Assembly: GCF_036365525.1 (NCBI RefSeq)
Contig: NC_090383.1
Location: forward strand, 10,653,384-10,717,383
Length of the DNA: 64,000 nt
Direction of reading: 5' to 3'
Origin: Heterodontus francisci
Lineage: Eukaryota
This document shows positions 14,630-64,000 of the stretch, piece by piece. The notes under the pieces are model-generated. The model saw nothing but the letters and a program-made list of their open reading frames with translations. It had not been told where the DNA came from and did no database searches. Position numbers and translations under genes: made by a program. Each line of letters begins with the position of its first letter. Positions within the stretch are counted from its first letter, which is position 1.

Positions 14630-15571
14630 TGTTCTCTTTACTTTTGCTTTCATTGTTTCCCTGTAGCAAAGCTTATGCAATCAGTTTTGATTGTGTTGCG
14701 GCTTGTTGGATGAGGCACTGCCACATGGTGTGGTTTGTGGCAGGGTCCTCCCACACACTGATGTCAATTTATCCCCTTTTCAATGAGGCCTTCAGAATCT
14801 CCTTAAAACATTTTCTCAGGCCTCCTTGAGGTTGGGTGCTATCCTTAAGTTGTGAGAAGAGCATCTGCTTTGAAATTCAATTATTTGGCATGTGGATGCA
14901 GTGTCCAGACCAGCAAAGCCTAAAGCCAGTTTGGTTTTGGAAAGCAGGTTGGATCCTAAAGCCAGTTAGAACAATGCTCAATCGCACTTTTGAGCACCAC
15001 CACCATGTGAGATCCCCATTGCCCCTTGAATAAACCTATACCCAGACTGACTCCAGACCTCATTCCAGACCAGCAACCGGCCTTAGACTTGACCACTACT
15101 AGCTCACCACCTTAGATTTGATCACCATCACAAACTAAACCTACTTTCATAAAGTATACTAGTCCTGGATGCAGTGGCCAGATTAAGAAACATTACTGCT
15201 ATAATTTTCGCAGTGACACCAATATTGTGGCTTTACTGTGTTTCAAAAGAGCATTTCACTTTGCTGCCAGCTCCCAAACCACGCCCCCTCCCCCACTTCT
15301 CCATCAGCAACCTGACCCTCTCATATGCTCTTTTCCCTGCAACTTCTCCTCACACCATCCCCCATCCCCCGCCAGCTTTCTTGCCTGCTGTTTCCCACAC
15401 CCACTCTTGCTATCTCCTTCCAAAAATTCAACTTAGTCATTCCTGGCCTGGAAAACGGAAGAAAGATGACAAACATACAATGTGTATCTGGTCCATCCAG
15501 CCTGTCCTACCCAATTGTGATACCATGTGTAGCACTATATATATACTCCCCACCCAAAACCATGTTATTTT

Positions 15572-16340
15572 TTATTTGTTCGTGGGATGTGGGCATCGCT
15601 GGCTAGGCCAACATTTATTGCCCATCCCTAAGTGCCCTTGAGATGGTGGTGGTGAGCTGCAGTCCATGTGATGTAGGTATACCCATAGTGCTATCAGGGA
15701 GGGAGTTCCAGGATTTTGACCCATCGACAGTGAAGGAATGACGATATAGTTCCAAGACAGGATGGTGTGTGGCTTGGAAGGGAACTTGCAGGTGGTGGTG
15801 TTCCCATGCATCTGCTGCCCTTGTTCGTCTAGGTGGTAGAGGTCGCGGGTTGGGAAGGTGCTGTTGAAGGCGCCTTGGCGAATTGCAGCAGTGCATCTTG
15901 TAGATGGTGCACACTGCTGCCACTGTGCGTCGGTGGTGGAGGGAGTGAATGTGTGTGGATGGGGTGCCAATCAAGCAGTCTGCTTTGTCCTGGATGATGT
16001 CGAGCTTCTTGCGTGTTGTTGGAGCGGCACCCATCCAGGCAAGTGGAGAGTATTCCATCACACTCCTGACTTGTGCCTTGTAGATGGTGGACAGGCTTTG
16101 GGGAGACAGTAGATGAGTTACTCGCTGCAGAATTCCCAGCCTTTGACCTGCTCTTGTAGCCATTGCATTTATGTGGCTGGTCCAGTTCAGTTTCTGGTCA
16201 ATAGTGACCCTCAGGATGTTGATTGTGGGGGATTCGGCAATGGTAATGCCATTGAATGTCAAGGGGAGATGGTTGGATTTTCTCTTGTTTGAAATGGTCA
16301 TTGCCAGACACTTGTGTGGCGCGAACGCTACTTGCCACTT
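15572..16340 (-). mobile_element. 3' part of the tRNA-headed LINE family (CR1/L2 supergroup)
   Basis: ORF 15615-16301 (YKAQVRSVMEYSPLAW) and tail gggcaataaat...ccagcgatgcccacatccc shared with 41090-41140 and 53060-53125. Confidence 0.88.
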
Positions 16341-17440: not shown

Positions 17441-17770
17441 TACTCGGTCAAATGTTGCCTTGATGTCAAGGGTAATACTCTTACCTCACCTCTTGAGTTC
17501 AGCTCTTTTGTCCATGTTTGGACCAAGGCTGTAATGAGGTCAGGAGCTGAGTGGCCCTGGAGGAACCCAAACTGAGCGTCAGTGAGCAGGTTTTTGCTGA
17601 GTAAGTGCCGCCTGATAGCACTGTCGACGACACCTTCCATCACTTTGCTGATGATCGGGAGTAGACTGATAGGGCGGCAAGTGGCCGGGATGGATTTGTT
17701 CGGCTTTTTGTATACAGGACATACCTGGGCAATTTTCCACATTGCTGGGTAGATGTCAGTGTTGTAGCAT
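17441..17770 (-). mobile_element. Upstream RT piece of the tRNA-headed LINE family (continues into 15572-16340)
   Basis: IYPAMWKIAQVCPVYKK...RPISLLPIISKVME is nearly identical to the translation of 63870-64000. Confidence 0.88.
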
Positions 17771-19649: not shown

Positions 19650-19800
19650 CGACAACTTGCATTTGTAGAGCATCTTCATCATAGTAAAACCTCCCAAGGT
19701 GCTTCACAGGAGCATTATCAAGCAGCCAATTGACAATGAGACACATAAGACGACAGGCAACCAAAAGCTTGGTCAAAGAGGTAGGTTTTAAGCAGCGATT
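19650..19800 (-). mobile_element. L2 3' tail fragment
   Basis: aaagcttggtcaaagaggtaggttttaag is the reverse complement of the L2 tail seen at 23900-24045 and 59340-59500. Confidence 0.65.
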
Positions 19801-23104: not shown

Positions 23105-24050
23105 GTGAAGCCTGATGACCAACTAGCGAGAATTGTTCATGGCTCTGTCTCTTCAGGTGTTGTCCCCCTCTCAAAAAAAACAACTCTTGACCCCACAGTC
23201 CTTGTAAATTACCATCCCATTTCCAACCTTCCTTTCCTCTCCAAAGTCCTTGAATGTATTGTCGCTTCCCAAATCTGTGCCCATTTTTCCCGAACTCCAT
23301 GTTTGAATCCCTCCAATCAGGTCTCCGTCCCGGCACAGTACCAAAACGGCTCTTATCAAAGTCACAAATGACATCCTATGTGACTGTTACAAAGGTAAAC
23401 TATCCCCCCTCATCCTTCTTGACCTATTTTCAGCCTTGGACATGGTTAACCACACCACTCTCCTCTAACGCCTCTCCACTGTTGTCCAGCTGGGTGGGAC
23501 TGCTCTCACCTGGTTCCACTCTTATCTATCTAATCGTAGCCAAAGTATCATTTGCAAAGGCTTCTCTTCCTGTTCCTGCACCGTTACCTCTGTTGTTCTC
23601 CCAAGGATCTATCCTTGTCCCCCTCCTATTTCTCATATACATGCTGCCTCTCGGTGACATCATCAAAGAGCAGTGTTAGTTTTCACATGTACGCTGACGA
23701 CACCCAGCTCTACCTCACCACCACCTCTCTCGACTCCTCCATTGTTGCTAAATTATATGACATCCAGTACTGAATGAGCGTCCCCAATTTGAACAGCTCT
23801 ACCATTGGTGGCTGTGCCTTCAGTGGCTTGGGCTCCAAGCTCTGAAGTTCCCTCCCTAAACCTCCCAGCCTCTCCAGCTCACTTTCCTCCTTGAAGAGGC
23901 TCCTTAGAACCTACGTCTTTGACCAAGCTATTGGCCATCTGTCCTAATATCTTGCCTGGCTCAGTGTCAAATTCTTTGATTACGCTCCTGTGAAGTACTT
24001 TGGGATGTTTTATTACATTAAAGGAGCTACATAAATACAAGTTGCTGTTT
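23105..24050 (+). mobile_element. L2 LINE fragment (RT core plus 3' tail, internally deleted)
   Basis: NYHPISNLPFLSKVLE, QGSILVPLLF and HMYADDTQLY motifs; tail tttgggatgttttattacattaaaggagctacataaatacaag. Confidence 0.85.
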
Positions 24051-24821
24051 TTCTTGACAGTGCTATTGGGATAGATGCTGGAGGCTGTGGAGGTTTGCCT
24101 CCCTTGCAATATCAGGCTTGGGAATATCCCCAGTCTTGAGGCAACACCTAGCTGAAATAAGTGTATTAAACAATACAAATTATCAGTGTCGAAAAGCTAG
24201 TTCAATCTTGGTGCCTTACCAATAAACTCAAGTAGTAGGAGTCAGATCTCACTCATTTACGTTCAATGTCTCTAAATGATTTATTATTTAATCGACCATA
24301 CATTCAAGAGTCATTAAGTATTCTATTTATAAATAAACACTACTTTGTCAACATGAATAACAATCATCACTGCAGTGCCGCAGTACAGCATTACATTTGC
24401 TTGAAGCATTTTGGAAACATTCGCAAAAAAATATTCTGGCATTGTCCCACCCTCAGTTCAGAATGCAGTTGATACACTACTTCAACTGTGTGCAGCTGTG
24501 GCCTGTATTTTATAACTAATGTCAAGCTGAACTTCAAACTTCGTGAATAAATCATTGATGAATGTGCCATGTTGATGATATATATATATTGATGTTCGAA
24601 CTTTACCACCAGTGCAATGCTTTCTGAGACTTTAAGTAAGTTTTACTGCAAGCTGTTGACTCAATTTACCAATCAATCTCTAATTGACATTGGCTTTTGT
24701 GGCTAACATGTGGTAAAATAGCTGACACGAGTAGCAAAGCTCCACCTAATCCTTAACCACAGCTGCTCAAAATAAATACTGGTAGTATTCATTTTAGATA
24801 AATGGTAATATTAGATAGACT

Positions 24822-25256
24822 GACTTGCATTTATATAGCACTTTTCATCACCACAGGACATCCCAAAGTGTTTTATAGCCAATGAAGTACCGTTACAGTG
24901 CTATTGTAACATAGCAAATGCAGCAGTCAATTTGCACACAGCAATGACCCACAAACGGCAATGTGATAATGGCAAGATAATCTGTTTACGTGATGTTGAT
25001 TGAGGGATAAATGTTGGGCAGGACATCAGGAAGAACTCCCCTTCCTGTCTTCGAAAAAGTGCCACAGGATCTTTTATCCACCTGGGATGGCAGACAAGGT
25101 CTCAGTTTAATAGCGCCTCCAAATAACAGCACCACACTCCCTCAGTACTGCACTGAAGTGTCAGCCTAGATTTTTGTGCTGAAATTCTGGAATGGGACTT
25201 GAACCCACAAAACTCTTAACTTCGAGGAAAGTGTGCTACCAACTGTGCCACAGCAG
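24822..25256 (-). mobile_element. DeuSINE (SacSINE1-like), near full length
   Basis: tRNA head (gtggcacagttggtagcac...gggttcaagtccc), Deu domain and L2-like tail tatataaatgcaag. Confidence 0.85.
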
Positions 25257-26190: not shown

Positions 26191-26929
26191 TGGCTGGAAT
26201 TTTACGCCCACCCAAAGAACGGGAAGGTGGTGAGGGGGTGGGGGGGGACGTAAAATGGAGCAGGAAGCTTGGGGGGCCCTTCCCGACCCGCTCTCGCCAT
26301 CACTTTACGCAGGACGGCGGTGGCGAAAAACGGTCCGCCCGCCTCAGGCCAATCAAGGCCCTTGTTCCCACTTAATGACCACTTAAGGGCCTCCGCCTGC
26401 CGCCACGGGGCGGCCTAGGCTTGAGAAAAGCCACCTATTAAAAGCAGATGGCTCTCTGATGGCCTGGGGGGGGGGGCGCGGGGGCGGCCTCATGATTGGG
26501 CACCCTGTGCCCGACGGAGGGCCGTCCCCGCTACTCCAACCACCCCCAACACACACCAACCCCCCCCCCCCACCCAACATCCCCCAATCGACCACCCTCG
26601 CCTCGCTGGGGCCCGACACATCACCCCCCACGAGACAACAAAAACTTACTTGGTTCCGGGCTCCCCGACATCTTCGTCTTGAAGCTGGGCTGCAGTCCCA
26701 GAAATGGCCACTGCTCCTGGTGGCGCTGCTGGGACTAAGAGCTGCCAGCCCGCTGATTGGCTGGCAGCTCTATTAGGCGGGACTTCCTGTGGAAGTCCCA
26801 CCTCAGAACAATTAAAGGCCGGGGTCCTGCAAAATGCGGATCGGATCCTAAGGCCAGGCAGGGGCGGGCTTGCCACCAACCTTTGAGTCGGTGGATGGCT
26901 CCCGTCTGCCAAGGGTAAAATCCCGGCCC
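26191..26929. mobile_element. PIF/Harbinger-like MITE
   Basis: ggctggaattttac...gtaaaatcccggccc; internal motifs run in the opposite orientation to the 6530 copy. Confidence 0.72.
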
Positions 26930-27523: not shown

Positions 27524-27912
27524 GGACTTATATAGCACCCTTTATGATCACCAGGCATCTCAAAGAGCCTTACTGACAACAAAGTGCAGTCACTGTTGTA
27601 AAGTAGGACACCAATTTGTGCACAGCAAGATCCCACAAATAGCAGTATGATAATTATGTTTTTGGTAATGTTGACTGAGGGATAAACATTGGCCAGGACA
27701 ACTCCCCTGCTCTTCTTCCAAATAGCGCTATGGGATATTTTACATCCAGCTGAGAGAGCAGACAGGGGCTGCGTCTCATCCAATAGAAAGCATCATTGCC
27801 AGCACCACACTGGAGTGTCAGCCTTGAATTCCGTACTCGAGTCCCGGAGCAGGACTTGCACTCACAACCTTCTAACTCAAAGGCGAGAATGCTACCCACT
27901 AAATCACAACGG
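27524..27912 (-). mobile_element. DeuSINE (SacSINE1-like)
   Basis: Same head, Deu domain and tail as 24822-25256. Confidence 0.8.
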
Positions 27913-28876
27913 AAATAATACAATTAAAAAACACAATCTTATGCTAATGGAAGAGTTAATATACTTAGTAAGTATTTACATGACACGAGTCAGTGCACAG
28001 AATTCAGCTTCACCGACATCATGAAGGGGATTGATTATATCCTTATAAACAATATATCCCACTCTGACATTAATACTGCTTTTTCTGAAACTACACAAGA
28101 ACTCTCATTATCTTAACTCTAACTGCAATATAATGCATCTGTAATGGATTAATAGCTCTGTGTATCTCATATTTATGGTCTGCAGTTTTTTTACCGAGAT
28201 ACTTTATAATTACACAAGATAATGCCACTTAGATTAGTGCAGCTACATTTCCACAGAAATGACAGGACAAATTGTCTAAAAGCAGCAGCCATTGTGTAGG
28301 GAAACAGTGTAAAGTTGCATTAAAATGATACTTATTAATGGTGATTAATCCAATTTGGAGTCATTTTCAAATCAAAATTGTACATTGAGAACCTTGAAGG
28401 GCAAGCTTAACATATTAATGTAATGTAATGCTAAATAACTGAAATGCCAATTGTTTCATCTTTCAAATGTCGAAATCTGGTATGAAAACAGGAGGAGAAC
28501 GAATATTACATTTGGAATTAGTTTCAATTTATACCATCTATTTCAGAAAGACACATCTATAACCTTTCAAAAGCAAGCGATCAGTATGTTTTAATTGGTT
28601 TAATTCTTTATAGTTTTTGTTCAAGAGAATGGACAAGAGAATAAAAACTGAACGTAGAACAGTAGCTACTCAGTGTATTAGAGAAGTCTGACATTACAGA
28701 AAGCTGCAATACCTGTCTGTGGGTGGCTTCTTGCAAAATGTGTTCAATATTTCAAGTCCTGCTTGAGGATATAAACATGGGGAGGGACGGAACAAGAGCA
28801 AAAAAAATCACCCTGGGTCGATCTCATGCACCTCGTATCAGTCTGAATCAGAATGGCATAAGAACAGAAGAAAGAA

Positions 28877-29323
28877 AGATTTGCATTTATATAGCACCTT
28901 TCATCACCACCAGATGTCCCAAAGCACTTTACAGCCAATTAAGGTATTTTGAAGTGTAGTCACTGTTGTGATGTAGAAAACACAGCAGCCAATTTGCGCA
29001 CAGCAAGCTCCCACAAATAGCAATGTTATAATGACCTGCTTTTTTTGATATTAATTGAGGGATAAATGTTGGCCATGACACTGGGGGAGAACTTTCCTAC
29101 TCTTCTTCAAAATAACACCATGTGATCATTTACATCCATCTGAGAAGGCAGACAGAGCCACAATTTAATATCTCATCCAAACTGCAGCACCTTGACAATG
29201 CAGCATTCCCTCAATATAGTACTGGAGCATCAGCCTTAACATTTATGGTCAAGTCCTGGAGTAAGACTTGAACCCACAACCTTCTAATGTAGGGGCAAGA
29301 GTGTTACCAATTGAGCCACAGCC
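28877..29323 (-). mobile_element. DeuSINE (SacSINE1-like), near full length
   Basis: Head gctgtggctcaattggtaacac...gggttcaagtc, Deu domain and tail. Confidence 0.85.
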
Positions 29324-29334
29324 AACAGTCAAAA

Positions 29335-29625
29335 CAGAAATAGGTGCAGAAGTAGGCCTTTTGGTCCCTTAAACCTGCTCAACCATTTAATAATATCACG
29401 GTTGAACTTCGACCTCAATTCCACTTTCACACCATATTCCCATATCGGTTGATTCCCCTCGTGCCCAAAAATCTGTTACTCAGTCTAGAATATACTTAAT
29501 GACTGAGCATCCATAGCCATCTGTGGTAGAGAATCCCAAAGATTCATAAACCTGTGAATGAAGAAATTCTTCCTAATCTCAGTTCTAAATGGCTGACCTG
29601 ACCCCTTATTCTGAGACTGAGACCC
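29335..29625 (-). mobile_element. CR1 3' fragment
   Basis: Reverse complement of the CR1 ORF2 end and 3' UTR (cf. 46930-47230). Confidence 0.75.
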
Positions 29626-29628
29626 CTA

Positions 29629-36410: not shown

Positions 36411-37030
36411 GCGAGAGAGGCCCAGTTTATTTTATTTCTGTTCTGACACAGAACTTTTAGCATTTCAACACATGCAAATGACATCACCTGTGAGAGTTGA
36501 ACAGAGCAGAAGGTTAAATGTCAGTGCAGAAAGCAAACACAACCAATGAACATAAACTTCTTCAAAATGTCAAAGTGAAATCAACATGCCTTGATATTCT
36601 CACATTCTAGGATATTAACTCAGAACAGTTAATTTTTTGCGGGAGTGCTAAATCTTCATCTGTATAATGGAGGTACAGCCAGTGGAAGGGTTTACACTGC
36701 CACCTGTGCATTGTGTGTCTTGCACTGAGCATAGTGTTGAATTAGTACTGTGCAAGTGTAGCTGGAGGTATTACACAGAACTCTGCTTTCTGGACTGCAA
36801 GTGATATAGTCAGTTCCAGTCATATGAAAAAGAGTCAAAGTTAGGATCAAGGTTATGAGCAGTCATCACATCTGCTATAAGCTGAGTTCAGTTGTCCGAA
36901 CTTGTTGGAGAGAGCCAAGTGGAACAGAGAGAGAGTGAAATAGTGAGAGACAGAAGCGAGAGGAAGAGAGACACTGAGTGAGAGAGAGAGAGAGAGAGAG
37001 AGTGTGTGAAAGGAGAGTCAGAAGGGTCTT

Positions 37031-37161
37031 CTGATGAAAAATCATTGACTTGAAACATTAACTCTGTTTCTCTCTCCACAAATGCTGCGAGACAAGCTGT
37101 GTATTTCCAGCATTTTCTGTTTTTATTTCAGATTTTCAGCATCCACAGTATTTTGATTTTT
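37031..37161 (+). mobile_element. Penelope-like pLTR fragment with hammerhead-like motif
   Basis: ctgatga...gaaacattaactctgtttctctctccaca...atttccagcattttctgtttttatt. Confidence 0.7.
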
Positions 37162-38852: not shown

Positions 38853-39175
38853 TAAGAACATAAGGAATAGGAGCTGGAGTAGGCTATTTGGCCCCTTGAG
38901 CCTGCTCCGCCATTCAACAAGATCAAGGCTGATCTTCTACCTCACCTCCACTTCCTGCACTATCCTCATATCCCTTAATTCCCTCAGTACCCAAATACCC
39001 TGACTTGAATATACTCAGTGACTGAGCATCCATGAATCTCTGGGGCAGAGAATTCCAAAAGATTCACAGCCCTCTGAGTGAAGATATTCCTCCACATCTC
39101 AGTCCTAAATGGCTGACTCCTTATTCTGAGACTGTGACCCTGTGTTCTAGATTCCCCAGCCAGAGGAAACATTTT
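38853..39175 (-). mobile_element. CR1 3' fragment
   Basis: MFPLAGESRTQGHSLRIRSQPFRTEMWRNIFTQRAVNL, with the tail reading taagaacataag on the + strand. Confidence 0.85.
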
Positions 39176-39240
39176 CTAAGCATGAGTAAGGGATATATTT
39201 TCAATGGCCGCCCAGCAGCATTGCACTGGAATCTGCTTAC

Positions 39241-40334: not shown

Positions 40335-41145
40335 GGCAAGACCTGGACAACATTCAGGCTTGGGCTGATAAGTGGCAAGAAATATTCACGCCACACAAGT
40401 TCGAGGTAATGACCATCTCTAACTAGAGAGAATCTAACCATCTCCCCTTGACATTCAATGGCATTACCATCGCTGAATCACCCACTATCAACATCCTGGG
40501 GGTTACCATTAACCAGAAACTCAACTGGACCAGCCATATAAATACAGTAGCCACAAGAGCAGGTCAGAGGCTGGGAATTCTGCGGTGAGTAACTCACCTC
40601 CTGACTCCCCAAAGCCTGTCCACCATCCACAAGGCACAGTCAGGAGTGTGATGGAATACTCTCCACTGGACTGGATGAGTGCAGCTCCAACAACACTCAG
40701 GAAGCTCAACACCATCCAGGACAAAGCAGTCCGCTTGATCAGCACCCCACCCACCACCTTAAACATTCACTCCCTCCACCATCGACGCTCAGTGGTAGCA
40801 GTGTGGACCATCTACAAGATGCATTGCAGCAACTCACCAAGCCTCCTTCGACAGCACCTTCCAAACCTGTGACCTCTACCACCTAAAAGAACAAGGGCAG
40901 CAGATGCATGAGAACATTACCATCTGCAAGTTCCCCTCCAAGTCACACTTGGAAATATATCGCCGTTCCTTCATTGTCGCTGGGTCAAAAACCTGGAACT
41001 CCCTTCCTAACAGCACTGTGGAAGTACTTTCACCACATAGAGTGCATCAGTTCAAGAAGGTGCCTCATGACCACCTTGTAAAGGGCAATTAGGAATGGAC
41101 AATAAATGCTGGCCTTGCCAGCGACGTTCACATCCCATGAATTAA
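40335..41145 (+). mobile_element. 3' part of the tRNA-headed LINE family
   Basis: VRSVMEYSPLDWMSAAPTTL...; tail gggcaattagg...aataaatgctggccttgccagcgacgttcacatccc. Confidence 0.88.
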
Positions 41146-41554
41146 TTTTTAAAAAGTGGTTCTTAAATTTTCTCTTTTTTTCCCCTAATTTTTCAGCTTC
41201 TTCGTCAGTCAGTTTTCTTTAACCTAAGTTTTGAATTCTGTGCGATTCTTTCATTTTCTAAAGCACCAAAAATATGATTGCCAAGATTCACTATGAGAAG
41301 AAGGCTCAATTGAATCTTAAAAATAACTCTTCTATAGTTATTATGCCTCTAAAAATATTTTTATGTATAGAGAATGTCAAGTGGGCACAGAGACATTAAA
41401 TTGCTTTTATCGTGATTTGGAAATAACTGTCTTAGGATAGCTCAGTATCCACTTTTGCTGCAGCAGCTGACAAGATTTGTCACAGAGCTAAAACAAAAGT
41501 CAGCAGTATGTGTATATGTTAAGGAAGGGCACGGGGATGGTAGTCTGAGTAAAA

Positions 41555-41945
41555 ACGACTTGCAATTATACGGAACCTTAAATGTAGCAAAGCCTACCAA
41601 GATGCTTCACAGGAACGTAATCAGACAAAATCTGATACCGAGCCACATTAAGAAACATTAGGACAGGTCACCAACAGCTTGGTCAAAGACGTAGGTTTTA
41701 AACAGCATCCTAACAAAGGAGAAGGAGCCAGGTAGAGAGGCAGAGAGGTTTAGAGAGTGAATTCCAGAGCTTAGGGCCTAGGCTGCTGAAGCCTTGATCG
41801 CCAATGGTGGAGTGAAGGGAATTAGGGAAACAAGATTTGGATGAAAACACTACTTGGAGGGTTGGAGCAGGTTACCGACATCGGGAGCAGTGAGGCCATG
41901 GAGGGAGTTGAACATGCATCAGCGAGCACAGGGGTGATGGGGGAG
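41555..41945 (-). mobile_element. L2 3' fragment
   Basis: cagcttggtcaaagacgtaggttttaa...ttccagagcttagggccta is the reverse complement of the L2 tail. Confidence 0.7.
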
Positions 41946-42989: not shown

Positions 42990-43158
42990 ATCCGCAGGTC
43001 AGGCAGCATCTATGGAGAGAAAAACAGTTAACTTTTCAATTTGTGTGACGTTTGTTAACTCTGGTTTTTCTCTCCACAGATGCTGCCTAACCTGCTGAGT
43101 ATTTTCAGTGTTTGGGTGTTTCTTTCAGATTTCCAGTATCCGCTGTATTTTGCTTTTG
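42990..43158. mobile_element. Penelope-derived foldback insertion with TSD
   Basis: Inverted arms gcaggtcaggcagcatc...gttaac / gttaac...gatgctgcctaacctgc, flanked by direct repeat caatctgtgttg (42978-42989) / caatttgtgttg (43159-43170). Confidence 0.7.
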
Positions 43159-43269
43159 CAATTTGTGTTGGTGTTTAACTTCCATATAACCATAGTCCTA
43201 ATCCCACGTGCCCAGTGTTCCGTTTTCCCCCATTACCTTCAACCACCTATCCAAAGTCAAACGTTGGCA

Positions 43270-44177: not shown

Positions 44178-44315
44178 ATCTGACGAAACGTAATGGGCCT
44201 TAAACATTAACTCTGTTTCTCTCTCCACAGCTGCTGCCTGACCAGCTGTGTTTTGCCTGTATTTTCTCTTTTTTTTAATTTCAGATTTCCAGCATCTGCA
44301 GTATTTCTGCTTTTA
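44178..44315 (+). mobile_element. Penelope-like pLTR fragment
   Basis: ctgacga...aaacattaactctgtttctctctccacag...tcagatttccagcatctgcagta. Confidence 0.65.
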
Positions 44316-45619
44316 CACCTTATATCATGCTCATTTGCTCCTCCATTGCATTGAAGCTCTGAACATGCTTGTGCTCCGCTTTATTTTGGAACAGTTACTT
44401 TTCATGTGGCTTTCCTGGATCCTAACTGGCATCAGAGGTGCAAACACTGTAAGAGCATGAAATGCTTCCAAAGCAAACACTTCTCTGCAAAAATGCACAG
44501 TGACTGAATTGGCTTCATAAATTATTGTGTGGGCACAGATGATCTATGGTATCCATAAGGTCACATGTAAATAGCTTAACATAGGCAGCAGCGCACGATG
44601 TACAACAGCTCATGTGGAGATCACACTGTGCATTAGATCAAGGAGTTACACTATGCTGAACGACTTCCTGGCATGGATGAAGCTTACTGACTTGCTGCTG
44701 CATAAAAAAAAAATGGGCCCCACCAGAGTTTCATGCCTGTCTGCTTTGTTACATTAAGTTGGAAATGAACTTTCTTATGACTATTGTGCTTACTTAACAA
44801 TACGAATAAAACATGTTTCTAATCACCCTTCATAATGGGTCATGTCGAGCATAAACACCGGCGTGGATCAGTTGGCCGAATGTCCTCTTTCTGTGTGGCA
44901 AAACCTTTGAAATTTCTTCTTCTTTTCTCCTGCTGCTCCCCCAGATCACAGCACTGATTTTCAGATATAGCAAAGCATTAAAAAGGAGGGGGACGATTGC
45001 CCCGATGACTGAGTGAAAGTCCGCATAACATGCTGTTGAGCTGTACAGACCAGGATGTTCCAGGTTCAATCTCTTGCCTGGGCTGGATTTGCTGGTTTCC
45101 CCTGAGGTGGTGCTGGGAGTCCTGCAATTGACCCAAATCTCTCTGAGCTAAGCTGAAGAAAACTCGGGTAAAATTAACTCTGGCCCCTGAGTTGGGTGAG
45201 GATTAGATCCAGTTTAGCTGTGATACTAACTATACTTGACAAGCCTGCCAGCACTCAATGGCTTGGTTGAAATATGAAGAGGGATCACTTCCACAAGGCA
45301 CTGGAGAATGGCCAGGGTAGAGGAGAGGAAAGGCAAAGAGAAAATTGTGGATCAAAAGGAAAAGAGGAGGAGACATATGAGCCATTCAGGAAATAATAGA
45401 AAATAATCATCAGGAAATAGTTCATTACAACAGGAATATGGTGGCTGATTATGGAGCAGAAGGAACAAGGCAAAGCAATACTTTGGGTCCTATATGCTAC
45501 ACAGTGTTGAGGCTGAATTTCTGAATAGAGTGGAACAAGTATATTGGGGGATTTAAAGACGAGGATGGAGAACCTGACATCAATTATTTCAGGGTGCAGG
45601 GAGTTAATGCAGATGGAAG

Positions 45620-47232
45620 AAGAGAGAGGTTAATCGACGTGAGGGACTAAAATCTGACAAGTCCCCGGGACCAGATGGCCTACACCCTAGGGTTCTAAAA
45701 GAGGTAGCTGCAGAGATAGTGGATGCGCTGACTCTGATTTTCCAGTATTCCTTAGATTCAGCAATGGTCCTGTCAGATTGGAAGTTGGCAAATGTTACAC
45801 CGCTTTTCAAGAAAGGAGGTAGAGAGAAAACAGGGAACTATAGGCCAGTTTGCCTATCATCACTTGTCGGGAAGATGCTGGAAACTATCATTAAAGAAGT
45901 CTTAACATTGCACTTGGAAAAGCATAGTATATTTAGAACAAGTCAGCATGGTTTTACTAAAGAGAGATCCCTTTTGACAGATTTATTAGAGTTTCTTGAG
46001 GATGTAACTAGTAGGGTAGATAAAGTAGATGTTGTATACCTGGATATTCAAAAGGCATTCGATAAGGTGCCACATAAAAGTTTAATAGGCAAGATAAGGG
46101 CTCATGGTGTTGGGGGTAATATATTAGCATGGATAGAGGATTGGTTAACAGACAGGAAGCAGAGAGTGAGCATAAATGGGGCATTTTCAAGTTGGCAGGC
46201 AGTGAATAGTTGGGTGCTGCAAGGATCAGTGCTGGGGCCTCAGCTATTTATACTCTGTATTAATGACTTGGATGAAATGACAGAGAGTAATGTATCTAAG
46301 TTTGCTGATGATACAAAGTTCAGTGGAAAGGTAAGCTGCAGGGAGGATGTAGAGAGGCTGCAAAGAGATATAGACAGGTTAAATGAGTGGGCAACAAGAT
46401 GGCAAATGGAGTATAATGTAGGGAAGTGTGAAGTTTTTCACTTTGGTCATAAAAATAGAAAAGCAGAATATTTTTAAAAGGTGTGAAACTGGTAAGCGTC
46501 GATGTTCGGGGAGACTTGGGGGTACTCGTACAAGGAACGCACAAAGTTAACATGCAGGTGCAGCAGGCTATTAGGAAGGCAAATGGCATGTTGGCCTTTA
46601 TTGCAAGGGAATTGGAGTACAGGAATAAACGTGTCTTACTAAAATTGTACAGGGCTTTGGTGAGACTGCACCTGGAATACTGTGTGTAGTTTTAGTCTCC
46701 ACATTTAAGAAAGGATATACTTGCACTGGAGGCAGTGCAGCGAAGATTTACTAAATTGGTCCCTGGGATGAGGGGGTTGTCCTATGATGACAGGCTGAGT
46801 ACATTGGGCCTATATTCTCTGGAGTTTAGAAGAATGAGAGGTGATCTAATTGAGACATACAAGATTCTGAAAGGGCTTGATAGGGTAGAAGCTGAGAGAT
46901 TGTTCCCGCTGGTCAGGGAATCTAGAACACGGGGACACAATCTCAGCTTAAAGGGCCAATTATTCAGGACTGAGATGAGGAGAAATTACTGCATACAAAA
47001 GGTTGTAAATCTTTGGAATTCTCTACCCCAGAGGGTTGGGGATGCGCCATCATTGAATACATTTAAGGCTGAGATAGAAAGATTTTGGGTCTCGCAGGGA
47101 ACAAAGGGATATGGGGAGCGGGCAGGAAAGTGGAATTGAAGCCCAAGATCAGTTGTGATCGTATTGAATAGTGGAGCAGGCTTGATGGACCATATGGTCT
47201 ACTTCTGCTCTTATTTCTTGTGTTCTTGTATG
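45620..47232 (+). mobile_element. CR1 LINE RT + 3' end, 5'-truncated
   Basis: KSPGPDG, NYRPV, KAFDKVPH, QGSVLGP and KFADDTK motifs; tail ttcttgtgttcttgtatg. Confidence 0.93.
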
Positions 47233-49765: not shown

Positions 49766-51504
49766 ACATCAAGATGTTAGTTAATAGAGACAAAGGCCTT
49801 CCCTGAAGGCTCGTACTATCACACGTATTGATGCTAGGTGCCTTCCAGAATCTTTTCCAAGTAGCCAGACAGAGTGTGGCAGGGTGGGGCAATGTAGCCA
49901 TTCTGGCCAATGGCTGACAGATTTTTTCCACTGCAGGTATGGTACACTAGTGCCAACTAGCGTGAGCTAACTCTTCATGCATTGGGATTGAATGTCTTTG
50001 GTCTGGTCTGTATAGCTGAGCTCCATAGAAAGCGGAGCAGTTATCAACTGAGCCCAACACTGCATCTTCTTTCACAACTTTAGAAACATCTGAACAAAAA
50101 TTTAGATGCAGTTTGCATCAAATATTTTATGCAATAGAAATATTAAAATTCAGCCTCGTTTCACTCACAAAGCTGAACATTGTACAGCAAGTGATAAATA
50201 ATCTGTAGAAAAGCCCTCATAGACTTTGGAGTCTAGAAATTGCAAGTATATTTCATATTTATATCAAGACACAAATATTGGTGGGCAAAATAAATAAATG
50301 AAAACTAAGCGTTCGTAATGAATAACTAAAGTATAAAAAGGTGTCTATATGATGCTCCACCAAATATTTTCAATCACATTAAAACTGAATCCAATTAACA
50401 TTGCACTCAAGCTGCATATTCTCTTGAAATGCTTTACACTGCTAAAAATGGGACTGCTGAATAGTTCAAGTGTGAAGAATAATTATGGCAGATTGCTGTT
50501 TATAACAAAATAATGGAATTAGAAGGCAGCTTAATTAACGGGGCACTTTTAGTGCATCATAAAGCAAGCATTTGTTGGCTGCTTTATAGGCACCTGCAAG
50601 AATACAGTGTGCAGAACAAAAAAAAAAGAGATCTTTCTAAATAATTATTGACTTGGAAAGCTTTGAACCTATTGCTGGTAGGCATGAACCTGCATGACAA
50701 TATCAAGCTGAATTTGGGCATGAATTTTTAAACTCTTGGAAATCAGCCACAAGACAGCTGGTGTGGCAAATGGAAAAAAGTCACGTTGTGCAGTCTGTTA
50801 TACTCCAGATAGCTAGGCAATGAATGATAGAATTGGAGCCAATCTTTACACACTTTCAGAAGGTTTTATTTACAGAGATACACATTACAAACATGCACCT
50901 CCTAACTCAACACCCAAATTTCAGTCTGTTCCTATTTATAGGAGCACAAATGAATCCCCAGACAATGCCCACCACCTGCATACAATTAAATATAATTAAT
51001 ATACAATTCACACAGTAACAGTTGTTCCTCAGAGAACAACTGGTACTGAATTACACTGTTGGATGCAGAATGGAGAGGTCCCAACAGTTTTACTATTGAT
51101 CTGACAGCACTTGATGCCCAAATAGAAATAACAATGTACAGAGTAGTCCATTCTCTAGCATCTCAATAGCGCAACCATTGCACATTAAAAGGGAGCAAAA
51201 ACCTCTGTGTTATACAAGATTGATGATATTGATAGCAACGCTCCCTACAACCAAACATTATTTTTCTGGCAAAGTGTGATTTCAGTGCAACACTAATCCC
51301 ACAACTTGCACTTTGTATAAGCGAGTGTGAGAAAGAATGTGAGAGCAAGTGAGATCTGTGTGTGTATGCGCGTTTGTGTGAGAAAGGGATGTATGTGTGT
51401 GCGAGTGTGTGCTTGTGTGTGTGAGTGTGTGCGTGGTTGGTGTAGGCCGTGAAAGTGAGTGAGGGGTGTGAGAGTGAGAGCATGAGAAAGGAGTGCATGT
51501 GCGT

Positions 51505-51997
51505 TTGTGTGAGGTGTGATGTATATGTGTGGGTGTTTGTGTGTATGAGTGAGGTGTGGTGTGTATGTGTGGGTATCTGTGTGTATTTGTGAGGTGTGGT
51601 GTGTATGTGTGGGTGTCTGTGTGTATTTGTGAGGTGTGGTGTGTATATGTGGGTGTCTGTGTGTATTTGTGAGGTGTGGTCTGTATGTGTGGGTATCTGT
51701 GTGTATTTGTGAGGTGTGGTGTGTATGTGTGGGTGTTTGTGTGTATTTGTGAGGTGTGGTGTGTATATGTGTGTATTTGTGAGGTGTGGTGTGTATGTGT
51801 TGGTGTTTGTGTGTATTTGTGAGGTGTGGTGTGTATATGTGTGTATTTGTGAGGTGTGGTGTGTATGTGTGGGTATCTGTGTGTATTTGTGAGGTGTGGT
51901 GTGTATGTGTGGGTGTCTGTGTGTATTTGTGAGGTGTGGTGTGTATATGTATGTATTTGTGAGGTGTGGTGTGTATGTGTTGGTGTTTGTGTGTATG
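51505..51997. repeat. GT-rich minisatellite with 40-bp and 30-bp unit variants
   Basis: Repeated gtgtatttgtgaggtgtggtgtgtatgtgt(gggtatctgt), preceded by a degenerate GT/GA tract from ~51320. Confidence 0.92.
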
Positions 51998-52559
51998 TGC
52001 AGGGGTTGACAGTCTAATGCTGAAGGTGCAGCAGTAACTTCAAGACTGAATTTTTGGAGTACAAGATCTTCAGCAGTTTCCACCTATGGATATGTCACTT
52101 TGAAGGCAGCTGGAATGAAGAAGCATGTCATGCCTGCTGAAGGTAGCGGATGGATGAGCCGTGCAGATTTGATTAGATGTGATGGAGTCCAGGACTCTGA
52201 CTGGCAGAGCACTAGGAGTGAAGTCTGGCCCTGTAAGCAGGAAAATCGTGGCTTTATTTTTAATGTTATTTATAATCCAATGACAATATAATGAACTTGC
52301 CATCTGTCTAACTTTAATTTAAATTTTACGCTGACGTGTTTATGAGAGATGGACGCATTGCCCTTGCCATGCCCTTAAAGGAGTGTTGCAGAAAGAAACG
52401 CAGCACTCGAGATCAAGTTCTACCCATGCTCCTTATTGGTTACAAGCCCATTTGCAGGGCAAAAACTGGCCATCTCCCATGCTATTTAAATAAAGTCTGC
52501 ATCTCTTAAAGGGGAGGTACACTGTGGCTGCTGGCAACATTTTCTAAGGGCAAAAATGG

Positions 52560-53049: not shown

Positions 53050-53412
53050 CATTCTTTTTTCATTCTTTCATGGGATGTGGGCATCGCTGGCAAGGCCAGT
53101 ATTTATTGCCAATCCCTAATTGCCCTCGACATCTGAGAGGCCTGCTCTGCCATTTCAGAGGGCAGTGGGTCTGGAGTCACATGTAGGCCAGACCAGGTAA
53201 AGATAGCAGACTTCCTTCTAAAGGACATTAGTGAACCAGATGGGTTTTTATGGCAATCAATGGTAGTTTCATGGCACCATTACACTAGATTTGTATTAAT
53301 TAATTGAATTTAATTTCCACCATGGTGGGATTTGAACCCATGTCCCCAGGGTATTAGCCTGGGCCTTGGGATTACTAGCTCAGTGACAGTACCACTACGC
53401 CACTGTCTCCCC
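53050..53412 (-). mobile_element. tRNA-derived SINE = 5' end + 3' end of the tRNA-headed LINE
   Basis: Head and body are collinear with 62047-62368; the tail matches the LINE tails at 15580-15635 and 41083-41140. Confidence 0.88.
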
Positions 53413-56008: not shown

Positions 56009-57043
56009 GGGCTGAATTTTCGTTTTGGGGGAGGGAAACAGGAGTCGGGTCTGTTTCCAGGTCCTGAACCGCTCCCAGGGGGTGGGGGAACCAGTCTCTC
56101 TTTGGGATTTTGACTGGGGCACTTCCTGATTTGGCATGGAGACAGATTCCCTGTCCAATTAAAGGGGTAGGCAGGCTCTCTAAGCCAGAGGGCCAAATAG
56201 AGGCCTTCCAGCTTCAGAGAAGCGTGCAGCTGCAGTAAAGGGTAAGTAACTGAGAAGGTACTTCAACAGGAAGGAGACTCTCAGCCATTTTTTAAAAGAT
56301 TTAAATAAAGAATAGAAAGATCAGCCAGTTCACCACTGTTGGGGGGGAGGAGGGTGGTGGCGGGGCAGAGAGTCCCTCCACAGAGTCGCCTTTGACAGCA
56401 CACAGGCAAGGATGGCCTCTAGCCTGCCTGGAGTGCTGGCATCCGGCCTGCCATAGGGTGTCTACCTCCCAGCAGTTGAACTGCCCACCATTGCAATGGG
56501 AAGCTGGAGGTTGACTGAAAAATCCTAGTCAACCTCCATTACTTACACCATACACCTCTTAATGAGCCTAACTGGCTGCCCGCCTTGTGGGTGTGCTGGG
56601 GACATGAAAGGCCGCCCAGCGATAGCTGCCGGCCTTTCCATGCCCCGGGGGGGGGAGGGGGCCATGGCAATTGGGCACAGGGTGCCCGATTGAGGGCCGC
56701 CCCCACCTCCCAAGACCAAGACGCGCCCCCCCCCCCCCACAAACACCCACTCCAACCTCACCACGGAAGGAACGATCTCCCTGGTGAGGCATGCCCAACT
56801 TACCTCGTCTCCTGGCTCCATCTGGTCGGCTGGACTGCAGTCCCAGCAGTGACCACCGCTCCCGGTGGTGTTGCTGTGCTGGGACAAAGAGCTGCCGGCT
56901 CACTGGAAGTCCCGCCTCAGGACACTTAAAGCCCGAGGACCCTTAAAATGAGGGATGGATCCCCGGGCTAGGCGGAAGCGGGTTCGGCCACTGACTTTTA
57001 TGTCGGTGATGAGTTCCCATCCGCCTAAGGTAAAATCCAGCCC
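56009..57043. mobile_element. PIF/Harbinger-like MITE
   Basis: TIRs gggctgaatttt / aaaatccagccc and TSD ATA (56006-56008 / 57044-57046). Confidence 0.75.
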
Positions 57044-58204: not shown

Positions 58205-59505
58205 CTGCCTGACTTCACCCCTGTTTCAGCTCATCGGCTGCTGAAACCCTCATTCATGTCTTTGTTACCTCTAGACTTGACTATTACAATGCACTCCTGG
58301 CCAGTCTCCCACATTCTACTCTCCGTAAACTTGATACCATCCAAAACTCTGCTGCCCATATCTTAACTCGCACCCAGTCCCACTCACTTATCACCCCTGT
58401 GCTCACTGACCTACGTTGGCTTACTTGTTTTCAAATCCCTCTGTGGCCTCGCCCCTCCCTGGCCTCACCCCTTCCCATCTCTGTAATCTTCTCCAGCCCA
58501 AAACCCTCCGAGATATCTATGCTCCTCTAATTCTGGCCTCTTGAGCATCCCCAAATTTAATCGCTCCACGATTGGTGGCCTTGTCTTCAGTTGTCTAGGC
58601 CCTAAGCCTTTTTTGAAGATGGTCACAATTACGGCAGTGTTACCTGCCTTCCTGTAAGCGTTGGAAACATGCACACTGTACAGCAGACATCTCAAAGCTC
58701 TGGAGAGATATCACCAGTGGTGCCTCCGCAAGATCCTGCAAATTCAGTGACAGGACAGGCCCTCCAATTTCAGTGTCCTCTCTCAGGTCAACATCCCCAG
58801 TATTGAGACACTGGTCATGGCTAGTCAGTTACGTTGGGTGGGCCAGATTGTCCACATTGCTGACGCAAGACTCCCAAAATAAGATTTCTACTCTGAGCTC
58901 CATCACGGCAAGAGGCTACCAGGAGGGCAGAGGAGACACTAAAGGATGTCCTTTAAACCTCCCTGAAAAAATGTGACATCTCCACTGATTCATGGGAATC
59001 TCTTGCCTGAGATCACCCAAAATGTAGAAGAAGCATCCACGAAGGTGCCAGCCTGTTCGAACAACGTCGTCATGCCCAGGCTGTGACCAAGTGCAAACAG
59101 AGAAAGGAGCACTCGGAAATTCGAGCATCCCATTCACTCGCCTCACCAAACACCACCTGCCCCACCTGTGGCAGAGTGTGTGGATCCAGGATTGGACTAT
59201 TCAGTTACCTAAGGACCCACAACCCTGGAGTGGAAGAAAGTCATCCTCGTTCCCGAGGGACTGCCTAAGAAGAAGAAGAAGGCTCTAAGCTCTGGAATAC
59301 ACTTCCTACACCTCTCTGCCTCTCTACCTCGCTTTCCCCCTTCAAGGCACTCCTTAAAACCTATCTCTTTGACCGAACTTTTGGTCATCTGACCTAATAT
59401 CTCCTTATGAGGCTCGGTGGCACATTTTGTTTTTAAATGCTGCTTTGAAGCACCTTGGGACATTTTATTACATTAAAGGTGCTATATAAATATAAGTTGT
59501 TGTTG
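58205..59505 (+). mobile_element. L2 3' fragment interrupted by an RTE insertion
   Basis: AETLIHVFVTSRLDYYNALL, then the L2 tail resumes at 59280 (ctctggaat...gaagcaccttgggac...tatataaatataagttg). Confidence 0.85.
58608..59279 (+). mobile_element. RTE LINE 3' fragment with TSD
   Basis: CPTCGRVCGSRIGLFSYLRTH, (AAG)n tail and TSD aggccctaagc (58597-58607) / aggctctaagc (59280-59290). Confidence 0.88.
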
Positions 59506-60059
59506 CTTTTATTTTATCTATGCTTTTTTTTAAACAAAGCTTCCATATAAATGTGAAGTAATAGTAATATCCCTATTGCACAGTAGAAGACCTGTTCCCT
59601 TTAAAAACCATCAACACTGACTTTCTCGGGTTACTGTTGATGTGGGGAAGGTACAATGCGCTCAAGACACTTCTACCCTTTATACTACGTGCCCCGGGAC
59701 AATACAGTACCGTGTTGTTGAAACTTTCCCGTTACTTAGGTTATGTGTCATGCAATGAATATTAAGAGGTATAAGCAATCAAGGATAACTTTTGTTGAGT
59801 GTATTGGTTCTGCTAGGTTTGCTACATGACAAGAAACAAATGATTTTCACTGGGAGAAAATTTATAGAAGATGTCACATAAAATGCATTCCTTTATCAGC
59901 AATGATCATGATAATTTGATTGCAAAGAGATAGCACTGTGGGGATTTAATGGAGAGTATTAACTGCCAGAGTTGCATTGCAAGTAGTGACCGATTGCCTC
60001 ATCAGCTGCCCTCCACATTAACATTCTAATTTGCATTAAAACAGCTCACTAATTTATAG

Positions 60060-60284
60060 TGATCAAAACAGAAAATGCTGGAAATACAGAAACAGAGTTA
60101 ATGGTTCAGGTAGATGATTTTTTTTTTTGCCAGACTGGGAATTAGCAGTTCTGACGACAAGGTCATTGACCTAAAATGTTAACTCTTGTTTCTCTCTCCA
60201 CAGATGCTGTCGGACTTGGGAGTATTTCCATCATTTTCTGTTTTTATTTCAGATTTCCTGCATCTGCATTATTTTGCTTTAGTG
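60060..60284. mobile_element. Penelope-derived foldback insertion with 14-bp TSD and hammerhead-like motif
   Basis: TSD tcactaatttatag (60046-60059 / 60285-60298) and inverted arms aaaacagaaaatgctggaaata / tatttccatcattttctgtttt. Confidence 0.8.
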
Positions 60285-62046
60285 TCACTAATTTATAGAT
60301 GCTTTTTGTAAATTTGTGAGCTCAAAGGGAGGCAAGCCAACAGTGCAGAAATGAAACACTCACCCACTTTTGGCATCTGAACATAAGTTATGTGCAGTAC
60401 CACCAAATGGAGGAAATCTACTTCTACACTGCATCAATAACCAATCAGAAACTCAACCTCAGCAGAATATCTCCCTGCTGCACTTGTGTGACTGTAACAG
60501 TTTGACGCTCATTTATAAACAAATTATAAGCGGTTTTGCGCTGTAGAGTTATCCCCCACTAAGATAGGTGCCAAGACTGACCAAAGCTTTCGTTTTACAC
60601 TATTCCAATGAAACTCAATGCAAGCTTGTGGAACAGCGCCTCATCTTTCTACTGCTCACTTCATGGGCCTCTGGCATTATCATTGACTTCATACCTTGAC
60701 CACAGCTCTCATTTTCTCTCTTGATAGCAGGTGCTAGTAAAATAGAATGGGTGCACCACACTTCTGGGGTTGGGAGAAGTTGTGGGTGTTATAGTGGTAG
60801 GAATCGAGATCCCTATCGATATTGAAACCATAAGGCAGTGATGTTGAAAATGATCCTTTATATACCTTATTACTTAATAGTTAAATAGCTAAGGGAATGG
60901 TAATTTGGAATGCAGAGAATTGAAGCACAGGGGGTTTCTCTTCACTATGGGCTGAGGAGCTGACAGACAGCAGTCAGGTGCTACAGTGCCACCACATGTG
61001 GGAGGGTGTAACTACACAATGACATATTTACAGAAGTTTACATTACAAATGTGGACTCGGGCATTTACAATGGCAAATAGCAAAATGTGACAACAAGAAA
61101 TATAGTTTTGTGGACAGGAGGTGTGTGCAAATGTAAGGGTTTAAAGTTATTCCAGATATGTTGAAATAATCGACTCAAAATGCTAGAAAGTCACTAAATT
61201 AAAACAATATTTAGATTCTCTGAGAAAAAAAATCTCGCTTCTTCAGGTCTCAAATCCAATTCAAACTCTACATATTGCAGAGGCTATGTGTGGTCTATCA
61301 CTTGGACGAAGGGTTCAATGAGCACCAGGCCAGAGAATGTCTAAACTGCAGTGTGCTGTGAAGTATACAGCTTTGTACAAGATGGGTGTTAATAGACTGA
61401 AGTAGAAGACATGAAAACTACTTCAAATGTGCTTTATTTGGACCTTTCCATTCTTTATTACAAAGGCAAAAACTGTAAACAAGGAGACTCCCTGTCCACA
61501 GGCCCTTCACATTATTATAGCAATTTCCACAATATATCATCTCACATCTTTTAAAAAAAACATACACAATGTCATCAGAGTTTTTCCCTCACGAGCAAAA
61601 AAGTAAACAATAGCAGCATTCAATTATTCAACGACACACACATACCTCTGAGGGAGTGCATGGAGAAAACACTGGCAGTCTATGCAGTATGTGTGTAGCC
61701 TTAGAACAAGGTATACCTGAGGTACTGTCAATTACCATCAAAGTTGTATGCTTGGCCAAAAATGTCAGCTGTCACTTCAAATATCACCCAATCAATCAGA
61801 GGCCAGAAACCTTCATTCATTTTTTCCCCCTCAATAGTCATAGCCAGCAAAACTATGCAATTTTCACTGTCATAGGGAACCAATAGTCAGTCTGGAATAA
61901 ACCTTGTTAAACCTTGCATCTTAATTAGGACCCTTATCTTAATTAGGTGTAGCAGATTCAATGCTATGATAACACAAGCTCTGGTGAAACAGGTATCGCC
62001 CATGACTCACCGATTTACTCCAAAATACATGAAAATATCGAGAGGT

Positions 62047-64000
62047 AGGCAGTGGCGCAGTGGTATTATCACTGGACTAGTAACCCAGAGACCCAGGGTA
62101 TTTCTCTGGGGACATGGGTTCGAATCCCACCACAGCAGAAGGTGGAATTTGAATTTAATTAATAAATCTGGAATTAAAAACTAGTCTAATGATGTCCATG
62201 AAGCCATTGTCGATTGTTGTAAAAACCCACCATCTGGTTCACTAATGTCCTTTAGGGAAGGAAATCTGCTGTCCTTACCTGGTCTGGCCCACATGTGACT
62301 CCAGACCCACAGCAATGTGGTTGACTCTTACATGCCCTCTGAAATGGCCTAGCAAGCCACTCAGTTGTATCTAACCGCTACGAAGTCAATAAAAAGGAAT
62401 GAAACCGGACGGACCACCCGGCATCGACTTAGGCACCGGAAACGACAACAGCAAACCCAGCCCTGTCGACACTGCAAAGTCCTCCTTACTAACATCTGGG
62501 GGCTTGTGACAAAGTTGGCAGAGCTGTCCCACAGACTAGTCAAGCAACAGCCTGACATTGTCATACTCACAGAATGATACCTCATAATGTCCCAGACACT
62601 GCAATCACCATCCCTGGGTATGTCCTGTCCCAACGGCAGGACAGTGGCACAGTGGTATACAGTAGGGAGGGAGTTGCCCTGGGAGTCCTCAACATTGACT
62701 CCGGACCCCATGAATTCTCATGGCATCAGATCAAACATGGGCAAGGTAACCTCCTACTGATTACCACCTACCACCCTCCCTCAGCTGATGACTCAGTACT
62801 GCTCCATGTTGAACACCACTTGGAGGAAGCACTGAGGATGGCAAGGGCACAAAATGTACTCTGGGTGGGGGACTTCAATGTCCATCACCAAGAGTGACTC
62901 GGTAGCACCACTGCTGACCGAGCTGGCCGAGTCCTAAAGGACATCGCTGCTAGACTGGGTCTGAGGCAGGTGGTGAGGGAACCAACATGAGGGAAAAACA
63001 TACTTGACCTCGTCCTCACCAATCTGCCTGCTGCAGATGCTTCTGTCCATGACAGTATTGGTAGGAGTGACCACCGCACAATCCTATTGGAGACAAAGTC
63101 CCTCCTTCACATTGAGGATACTGTCCATCGTGTTGTGTGGCACTATCACTGTGCTAAATGGGATAGATTTCAAACAGATCTCGCAATGCAGAACTGGGCA
63201 TCCATGAGGCGTTGTGGGCCATCAGCAGCAGCAGAATTGTACTCAACCACAATCTGTAATATCATGGCCCGGCATATCCCCCACTCTACCATTACCATCA
63301 AGCCAGGAGACCAACCCTGGTTCAATGAAGAGTGCAGGAGGGCATGCCAGGAGCAGCACCAGGCATACCTCAAAATGAGGCATCAACCTGGTGAAGCTAC
63401 AACACAGGACTATCTGCGTGCCAAACTGTGTAAGCAGCATGTGATAGACAGAGCTAAGCGATCCCATAACCAACGGATAAGATCTAAGCTCTGCAGTCCT
63501 GCCACATCCAGCCGAGAATGGTGGTGGACAATTAAACAACTAACTGGAGGAGGTGGCTCCACAAATATCCCCATCCTCAATGATGGGGGAGCCCAGAACA
63601 TCAGTGCGAAAGATAAGGCTGAAGCATTTGCAACAATCTTCAGCCAGAAGTGCCGAGTTGATGATCCATCTCGGCCTCCTCCTGAAGTCCTCAGCATCAC
63701 AGATGCCAGACTTCAGCCAATTCGATTCACTCCGCGTGATATCAAGAAACGACTGAAGGCACTGGATACTGCAAAGGCTATGGACCCTGACAATATTCCG
63801 GCAATAGTACTGAAGACCTGTGCTCCAGAACTTGCCACGCCCCTAGCCAAGCTGTTCCAGTACAGCTACAACACTGGCATCTACCCTGCAATGTGGAAAA
63901 TTGCCCAGCTATGTCCTGTACACAAAAAGCAGGACAAGTCCAACCCGGCCAATTACCGCCCCATCAGTCTACTCTCAATCATCAGTAAAGTGATAGAAAG
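62047..64000 (+). mobile_element. 5' portion of a tRNA-headed LINE (APE-RT, no ORF1), running off the window
   Basis: tRNA-like head, then TNIWGL...PDIVILTE, YHPP, WVGDFN, LDLVLTN, GRSDH, GPDNIP and NYRPISLLS motifs, with several stops and frameshifts. Confidence 0.9.
62053..62127 (+). promoter_or_regulatory. Type 2 Pol III promoter (A box + B box) at the LINE 5' end
   Basis: A box TGGCGCAGTGG at 62053-62063, consensus B box GGTTCGAATCC at 62117-62127, and an anticodon-like arm ctgga-ctagtaa-cccag. Confidence 0.75.

Follow-up and report, generated by a model that had tools for sequence, protein, structure and literature searches.

A shark SINE composed of the two ends of a LINE that carries the same tRNA-derived head

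The window we analysed, a stretch of 64,000 nucleotides from the shark Heterodontus francisci, contains a SINE whose three parts are all found on a single LINE. Our comparison confirms that the SINE is built from the opening ~323 bp of the 3.27-kb LINE and its final ~70 bp, with nothing between them, and that the tRNA-derived head is a regular component of the LINE in both its old and its young subfamilies. The SINE was likely assembled from the LINE ends by deletion from the tRNA-headed LINE, and has likely been refreshed from the LINE since then. One deletion would supply head, body and tail of the SINE alike, and the tracing of the SINE body to the 5' UTR of a LINE bears on the origin of SINE bodies. 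The features of the window are listed in Table 1.

Table 1. Features of the SINE, its partner LINE and other repeats in the window
Feature	Position	Strand	Remarks
SINE copy, old subfamily, GTC-type junction	53055..53412	-	tRNA-derived head, body, LINE 3' tail and short A-rich end
tRNA-derived head of the SINE	53325..53412	-	A box 53402-53392, B box 53338-53328; seen in the sequence; homologous to the head at 62048-62138
SINE body, common to the LINE 5' UTR	53129..53324	-	from alignment
SINE tail, of the kind that forms the final ~70 bp of the LINE	53050..53128	-	junction 53129/53128
LINE 5' end, same tRNA head and body as the SINE	62044..62368	+	A box 62053-62063, B box 62117-62127
LINE single ORF, APE endonuclease and reverse transcriptase	62353..64000	+	decayed in the window copy
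3' piece of the tRNA-headed LINE family, ending in the tail common to the SINE	15568..16340	-	further piece 17635-17768, CR1-type fragment between
Second 3' piece of this LINE family, likewise ending in the tail common to the SINE	40370..41141	+
Old interspersed repeat family	6552-7261, 26192-26923, 56601-57038
Old interspersed repeat family	24813-25254, 27528-27900, 28869-29322
Old interspersed repeat family	37029-37160, 43053-43160, 44179-44317, 60146-60280
Old interspersed repeat family	19645-19796, 23797-24052, 41548-41812, 59280-59507

On the reverse strand, 53162-53411 is 78% identical to 62044-62313 over 270 bp (E = 5e-55), and the collinear alignment with the LINE 5' end extends to about 62368. 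The initial annotation had described the match to 62047-62368 as continuous; the collinearity stands, but strict continuity does not, as the decayed window SINE has private gaps of 7, 7, 3, 2 and 22 bp relative to the LINE head and body. The further claims that the SINE body joins the LINE 3' tail directly, and that this tail is the one seen in the LINE pieces near 15580-15635 and 41083-41140, are borne out: immediately beyond the junction the SINE tail matches 15568-15644 at 86% (E = 4e-18) and 41082-41141 at 88% (E = 3e-14). The microhomology at the junction is 1 base. Body and tail abut without SINE-specific bases between them, and the LINE has no tail bases after its body. The junction is not private to this copy either, as a 25-mer spanning the old-type junction has 1,854 exact matches in the genome (reversed control, 0).

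By the definitions in use, the short element has features of two categories. It is approximately 390 bp long, within the SINEBase size limit of <700 bp, non-coding, interspersed and present in high copy on many contigs, and it has the tRNA-derived head with A and B boxes and the partner-LINE 3' tail that SINEBase asks for. It also has the make-up of a SIDE or bipartite non-autonomous LINE, which contains the 5' and 3' ends of its partner only: LINE positions 1-321/323 are joined to position 3215-3221 onward. It departs from a SIDE in its small-RNA head, present on both SINE and LINE; the lack of such a head or of a Pol III promoter is what sets Persaeus apart from SINEs.

The argument depends on the head being a genuine part of the LINE. 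If the join in the window were a chance chimera, formed by insertion of a SINE ahead of a truncated LINE, then head and body should be joined to the ORF at this locus only, the case in which the initial annotation would have had to be abandoned. We consider this vanishingly improbable, since the same join is found at the same base in many other copies. All 40 scored matches to a query of head plus ORF cover both parts, the window copy included, although such a query selects for the join. A census by position instead of match score used a motif of 15 bases at the body end, which excludes a C at place 35 and misses decayed copies; it has 27,686 exact matches in the 6.0-Gb genome and none in the reversed control. 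Among the first 100 matches on one contig, a few of which are local duplicates, 51 run into the LINE, 47 jump to the LINE 3' end, and 2 do neither. The family is thus large, with about half of its sampled members being LINEs and half short elements. Fifty of the 51 LINE-continuing matches reach ORF position 500, 38 have the 5' end, and 21 extend from head to tail. The 47 short elements comprise 39 with one of three common junctions (23, 13 and 3) and 8 that resume at other LINE 3' sites.

The head is not confined to the young copies. It also occurs at 28 of 30 loci of an older LINE subfamily, whose identity to the young majority is about 80%; a genome search with an old copy as the query returned young copies only. 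Of the distinct LINE pieces that cover positions 520-560 in the retrieved loci, 126 of 131 extend into head or body, most of these loci having been chosen for the head, and three of the five pieces that start later are headed copies split by an insertion. Public runs from four organisms cover the whole element and include head-to-tail joints, in contigs that are without transcript ends. Many divergent copies of the whole element, joined at the junctions known from the genome runs, also occur in metatranscriptome runs, one of which is labelled coral. No close coral protein is among the matches, and contamination is as likely an explanation for these copies as horizontal transfer.

For the structure of the LINE, 20 regions around the best matches were fetched and 17 of them aligned. 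Head, ORF and tail occur together as one unit. The 5' start is sharp, about 10 bases before the A box, the B box is located about 65 bases beyond the A box, and the 3' end is the tail common to the SINE followed by an A-rich run; the window copy extends about 1.3 kb beyond the window to this same tail. ARAGORN reports the LINE head at 62048-62138 as a tRNA-Thr-like gene. The Rfam tRNA score there is weak (20 bits against a cut-off of 29 bits), and Rfam gave no match at the gathering level. Of the 17 full-length copies, 7 have candidate target-site duplications of 4-5 bases, and several of these candidates match the tail of the element itself.

The LINE has a single long frame, with matches to Pfam endonuclease families PF14529/PF03372 (weak and partial) and to the reverse transcriptase family PF00078, and there is no space for an ORF1. 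A single ORF with APE and RT in an element of about 3.3 kb is the structure used to recognise CR1-Zenon LINEs. The nearest named protein matches are from sharks and a ray (65-87% identity), followed by invertebrates near 35-40%. The named non-shark matches are lepidopteran (34-36%) and, compared by eye, resemble a published Zenon fragment. The reverse transcriptase piece scores 150-170 bits to other relatives versus 77 to the decayed CR1 of the window. Judged by eye from these matches, the LINE appears to be Zenon-like. CR1-Zenon-like LINEs have been reported in the whale shark (10.1101/443036, accessible part).

The coding region differs between lineages of the LINE. No in-frame ATG was found upstream of the endonuclease. 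Young copies carry an out-of-frame ATG (window 62398 onward) that opens a short ORF overlapping the start of the main frame and that is absent from the old majority. A sub-lineage of full-length copies, to which the window copy belongs, has a 4-base frameshift early in the endonuclease (window 62580-62590). The frameshift is present in 14 of the 17 best matches, but in only 1 of 41 measurable position-sampled copies; the in-frame form is found in 39 of these 41 and in 12 of 12 old copies. The frameshifted sub-lineage probably spread on proteins supplied by intact copies.

The 3' half of the body (LINE positions 181-323, about 62225-62368 in the window) is conserved. Between the old and young subfamilies it has accumulated 2.1 changes per 100 positions, compared to about 4.5 in the ORF and 13 in the head. 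The low rate relative to the ORF suggests that this part of the body has a function. When single copies were folded as RNA, neither the 3' body (z = 0.56) nor the region before the ORF (z = -0.27) was remarkable, which leaves a ribozyme or an IRES unsupported.

The window also contains decayed pieces of CR1-type LINEs at 16340-17437, 46130-47227, 38854-39181, 29336-29627 and 12156-12530, the first of which is flanked on both sides by fragments of the tRNA-headed LINE family. A tandem array whose period is about 70 bases occupies 51497-51999, and four or more other old families of interspersed repeats are present.

The initial annotation proposed a comparison of ages between SINE and LINE. The heads turn out to group by age, not by class, with the window SINE in the old pair: it is 8.6% from the old-SINE majority and 13-14% from young SINE and LINE heads. 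The head majorities of young SINE and young LINE differ at 4 sites and those of old SINE and old LINE at 19, whereas comparisons across ages give 23-28 differences. In the patterns formed by the four groups, 15 head sites pair by age, 1 by class, and 21 by neither; the 15 sites of the age type join the young LINE with the young SINE, and the single site of the class type joins LINE with LINE. Tail states are also age-matched between SINE and LINE, with few old LINE tails behind this comparison (depth about 7). A tree was calculated from 104 heads, after removal of rows with <250 aligned bases and of three tandem duplicates and after thinning of three query-chosen groups to 12-13 each. The SINEs formed a single group in 0 of 200 bootstrap trees, and the AU-test gave p = 0.042, which is marginal in a tree whose bootstrap is unsettled and in which 66 of 101 inner branches are weak. 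Within the LINE, the age of the head correlates with the age of the ORF (rho 0.69, n = 33), which points to vertical inheritance of the head. A SINE-private change in the A box is found in 18 of 39 young-type SINEs, versus 2 of 89 LINE heads. At head position 18, inside the A box, a G-to-C change is present in about half of the young SINE copies, which still amplified.

If the SINE arose by deletion, the LINE reverse transcriptase would have left the tail and resumed at the body end, giving a short element. The short RNA would retain the A/B-box promoter together with a tail recognised by the LINE protein, and would amplify as a SINE that has its own master copies. Recurrent deletion, combined with homologous template switching, would keep the SINE ends in step with the LINE. 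Evidence that deletion does occur comes from the 8 less common junctions, some of which retain LINE-only bases (breaks at LINE 335 and 359, with the sequence taken up again at 3151 and 3137); these short elements can have come only from the LINE.

The initial annotation had left two directions side by side, deletion from the LINE and capture of the SINE head by the LINE. For how the short elements form, deletion is the better supported of the two. Under the second, an ordinary SINE with tRNA head, body and LINE tail would have come first, and template switching, perhaps repeated, would have handed its head and body to the LINE to serve as the 5' UTR. The ultimate source of the head may be a tRNA gene or an earlier SINE. 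The head was indeed gained at some time, given that distant LINE relatives are without it (ARAGORN found a tRNA head at 0 of 53 loci, out of 80 metagenome loci, and an upstream B box was found at 0 of 27), and a SINE would be a natural donor; these relatives, however, are only 23-44% identical and date nothing. The young SINE head is also ancestral to the youngest LINE heads, in that at 3 of the 4 differing sites the young SINE majority shows the state ancestral among young LINE heads, an observation that either direction explains. However, a capture would have had to stop no more than 2-3 bases away from the point where body and tail meet in the SINE itself, and no SINE with the same body and another tail was found among the 100 matches. 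Furthermore, the LINE heads are inherited together with the ORF, and the SINE-private changes were not passed on to the LINE. We therefore regard a SINE-first origin as unlikely.

A somewhat better case, though still a doubtful one, can be made for one ancient origin followed by concerted evolution, in which homologous template switching or gene conversion exchanged heads and tails between SINE and LINE RNAs and only rare copies came from new deletions. The C-type junction is found on both intermediate and young heads, which speaks against a fresh deletion each time: junction types that persist across head ages fit inheritance within SINE lineages, with exchange of heads, better than repeated fresh deletion. 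The 1-base microhomology at the main junctions also counts against repeated deletion as the sole process. In addition, a loss of 2 bases separates the GTC from the C junction, and a few short elements combine the head states of the youngest LINEs with a standard junction. Against this stand multi-copy junctions that resume at LINE 3190, 3212, 3218 and 3221, one of which also occurs in four public runs. Moreover, concerted evolution bears on how often new deletions occur and leaves the anatomy as it is, and it is compatible with deletion from the LINE. Two RNAs that share both ends would, through homologous template switching, yield junctions that span head ages as well as an ancestral SINE head. 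Homologous template switching thus probably contributes to the age-matched pattern, and deletion from the LINE with later refreshment remains our preferred explanation.

The presence of the head on the LINE raises the question of which polymerase transcribes the longer element. Transcription by Pol III from the LINE's own tRNA-type head is plausible as a prediction from sequence. In old LINE copies compared to the young majority, the A and B box positions are 91% conserved and the spacer 72%. Four T's terminate vertebrate Pol III transcription, and the sense strand of the LINE appears to bear a corresponding signal in its avoidance of T runs. Neither subfamily majority contains a T4 run, and they have 8 and 5 T3 runs, against 22 expected; runs of A, C and G are common, and the TTA codon is absent. 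The lack of T4 runs has P = 0.0085 when bases are shuffled, but P = 0.09 when codon usage is kept and 0.19 when dinucleotides are kept, so that a general avoidance of U could explain it. Old decayed LINE copies have 0.63 T4 runs per kb (1.96 expected), whereas 73 CR1-type pieces from the same loci have 4.24 (3.43 expected). In distant relatives T4 runs occur in 80 of 80, and none is as poor in T3 as the LINE.

Alternatively, the LINE may be transcribed by Pol II like other LINEs, with the head as a passenger or as a Pol II start, and Pol III would then serve the SINE only. This is a serious possibility, if a little short of an even chance. Coding RNA normally requires a cap, and the absence of T4 runs is non-significant under codon-preserving shuffles. 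Pol II is also the established view for non-LTR retrotransposons, and the processivity of Pol III is held to limit transcript length (accessible parts of PMC10886601 and PMC5786205 for the former, and of PMC10886601 for the latter). However, full-length copies begin sharply just before the A box, the boxes are conserved among LINE copies while the spacer changes, and the depletion of T runs is specific to the strand and to the family. If the LINE were driven by Pol III, it would provide a natural 3.3-kb coding Pol III transcript, and long elements are not known to use such a promoter. The papers accessible to us contain no description of a Pol III-driven LINE.

In the accessible literature we also found no description of a LINE and a SINE that share head, body and tail, although a Repbase or Dfam entry may exist. 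A 13-base body motif had no match in literature text and a 12-base motif none in the supplement text examined. The known chondrichthyan SINEs HE1 (a V-SINE with partner HER1), SacSINE1 (Deu) and the CmiSINEs (CORE) are likewise tRNA-derived with a LINE-shared tail (PMC5499810, PMC3747384). As far as their accessible descriptions go (PMC5499810, PMC3747384, PMC1845163, PMC10468316), they share the tail only, with CR1 or L2 partners. The SINE tail has no match to the CR1-type 3' pieces of the window, which may or may not belong to HER1, the CR1-type partner of HE1. Two named SINE bodies were considered and set aside by eye: the Deu domain of DeuSINE and SacSINE1, as printed for EbuSINE2/AmnSINE1, is unlike the body found here, and so is the 66-bp consensus of MetaSINE, even though the head is tRNA-Thr-like.

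Other joins of small RNAs with retroelements are known. The tRNA/L1 chimeric insertions are, in the accessible account, rare single insertions that mostly involve antisense tRNA halves (PMC13174262), and in TRIMp3 elements a small-RNA sequence is joined to short non-autonomous LTR elements (PMC10886601, accessible part). RTE-1_DAn and elements related to it are LINEs with a tRNA-like sequence; the accessible text of PMC5786205 mentions them as a source of accidental matches.

The closest parallels are two systems in which short elements derive from LINE ends. The lepidopteran SIDE Persaeus arose through repeated internal deletions of Zenon, a single-ORF CR1-type LINE (PMC6740152). As in the shark, a single-ORF LINE of about 3.3 kb gave rise, on several independent occasions, to short elements that combine its 5' and 3' ends and cluster with their partner. 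As described in the accessible part of that source, Persaeus has neither tRNA homology nor a Pol III promoter; its central region varies, and 5-bp direct repeats mark the break. In contrast, the shark SINE and LINE both carry a tRNA head. The main junctions of the SINE have 1-base microhomology. Since the 5' end of this LINE is itself a tRNA head, its deletion derivative is a SINE by definition. The bipartite SINEs of RTE and Vingi LINEs (Bov-tA, AfroSINE, WALLSI2, CoeSINE4) resemble the shark SINE in that the partner LINE provides their body from its 5' part and their tail from its 3' part. In the accessible text on these SINEs (PMC5786205), however, the tRNA head was added after the deletion and is absent from the LINE, and RTE and Vingi are the only contributors found. 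In the shark, head, body and tail are all present on a LINE that is not RTE-like by its matches. What is new relative to both the known LINE-deletion elements and the known bipartite SINEs is that the tRNA head is itself on the partner LINE.
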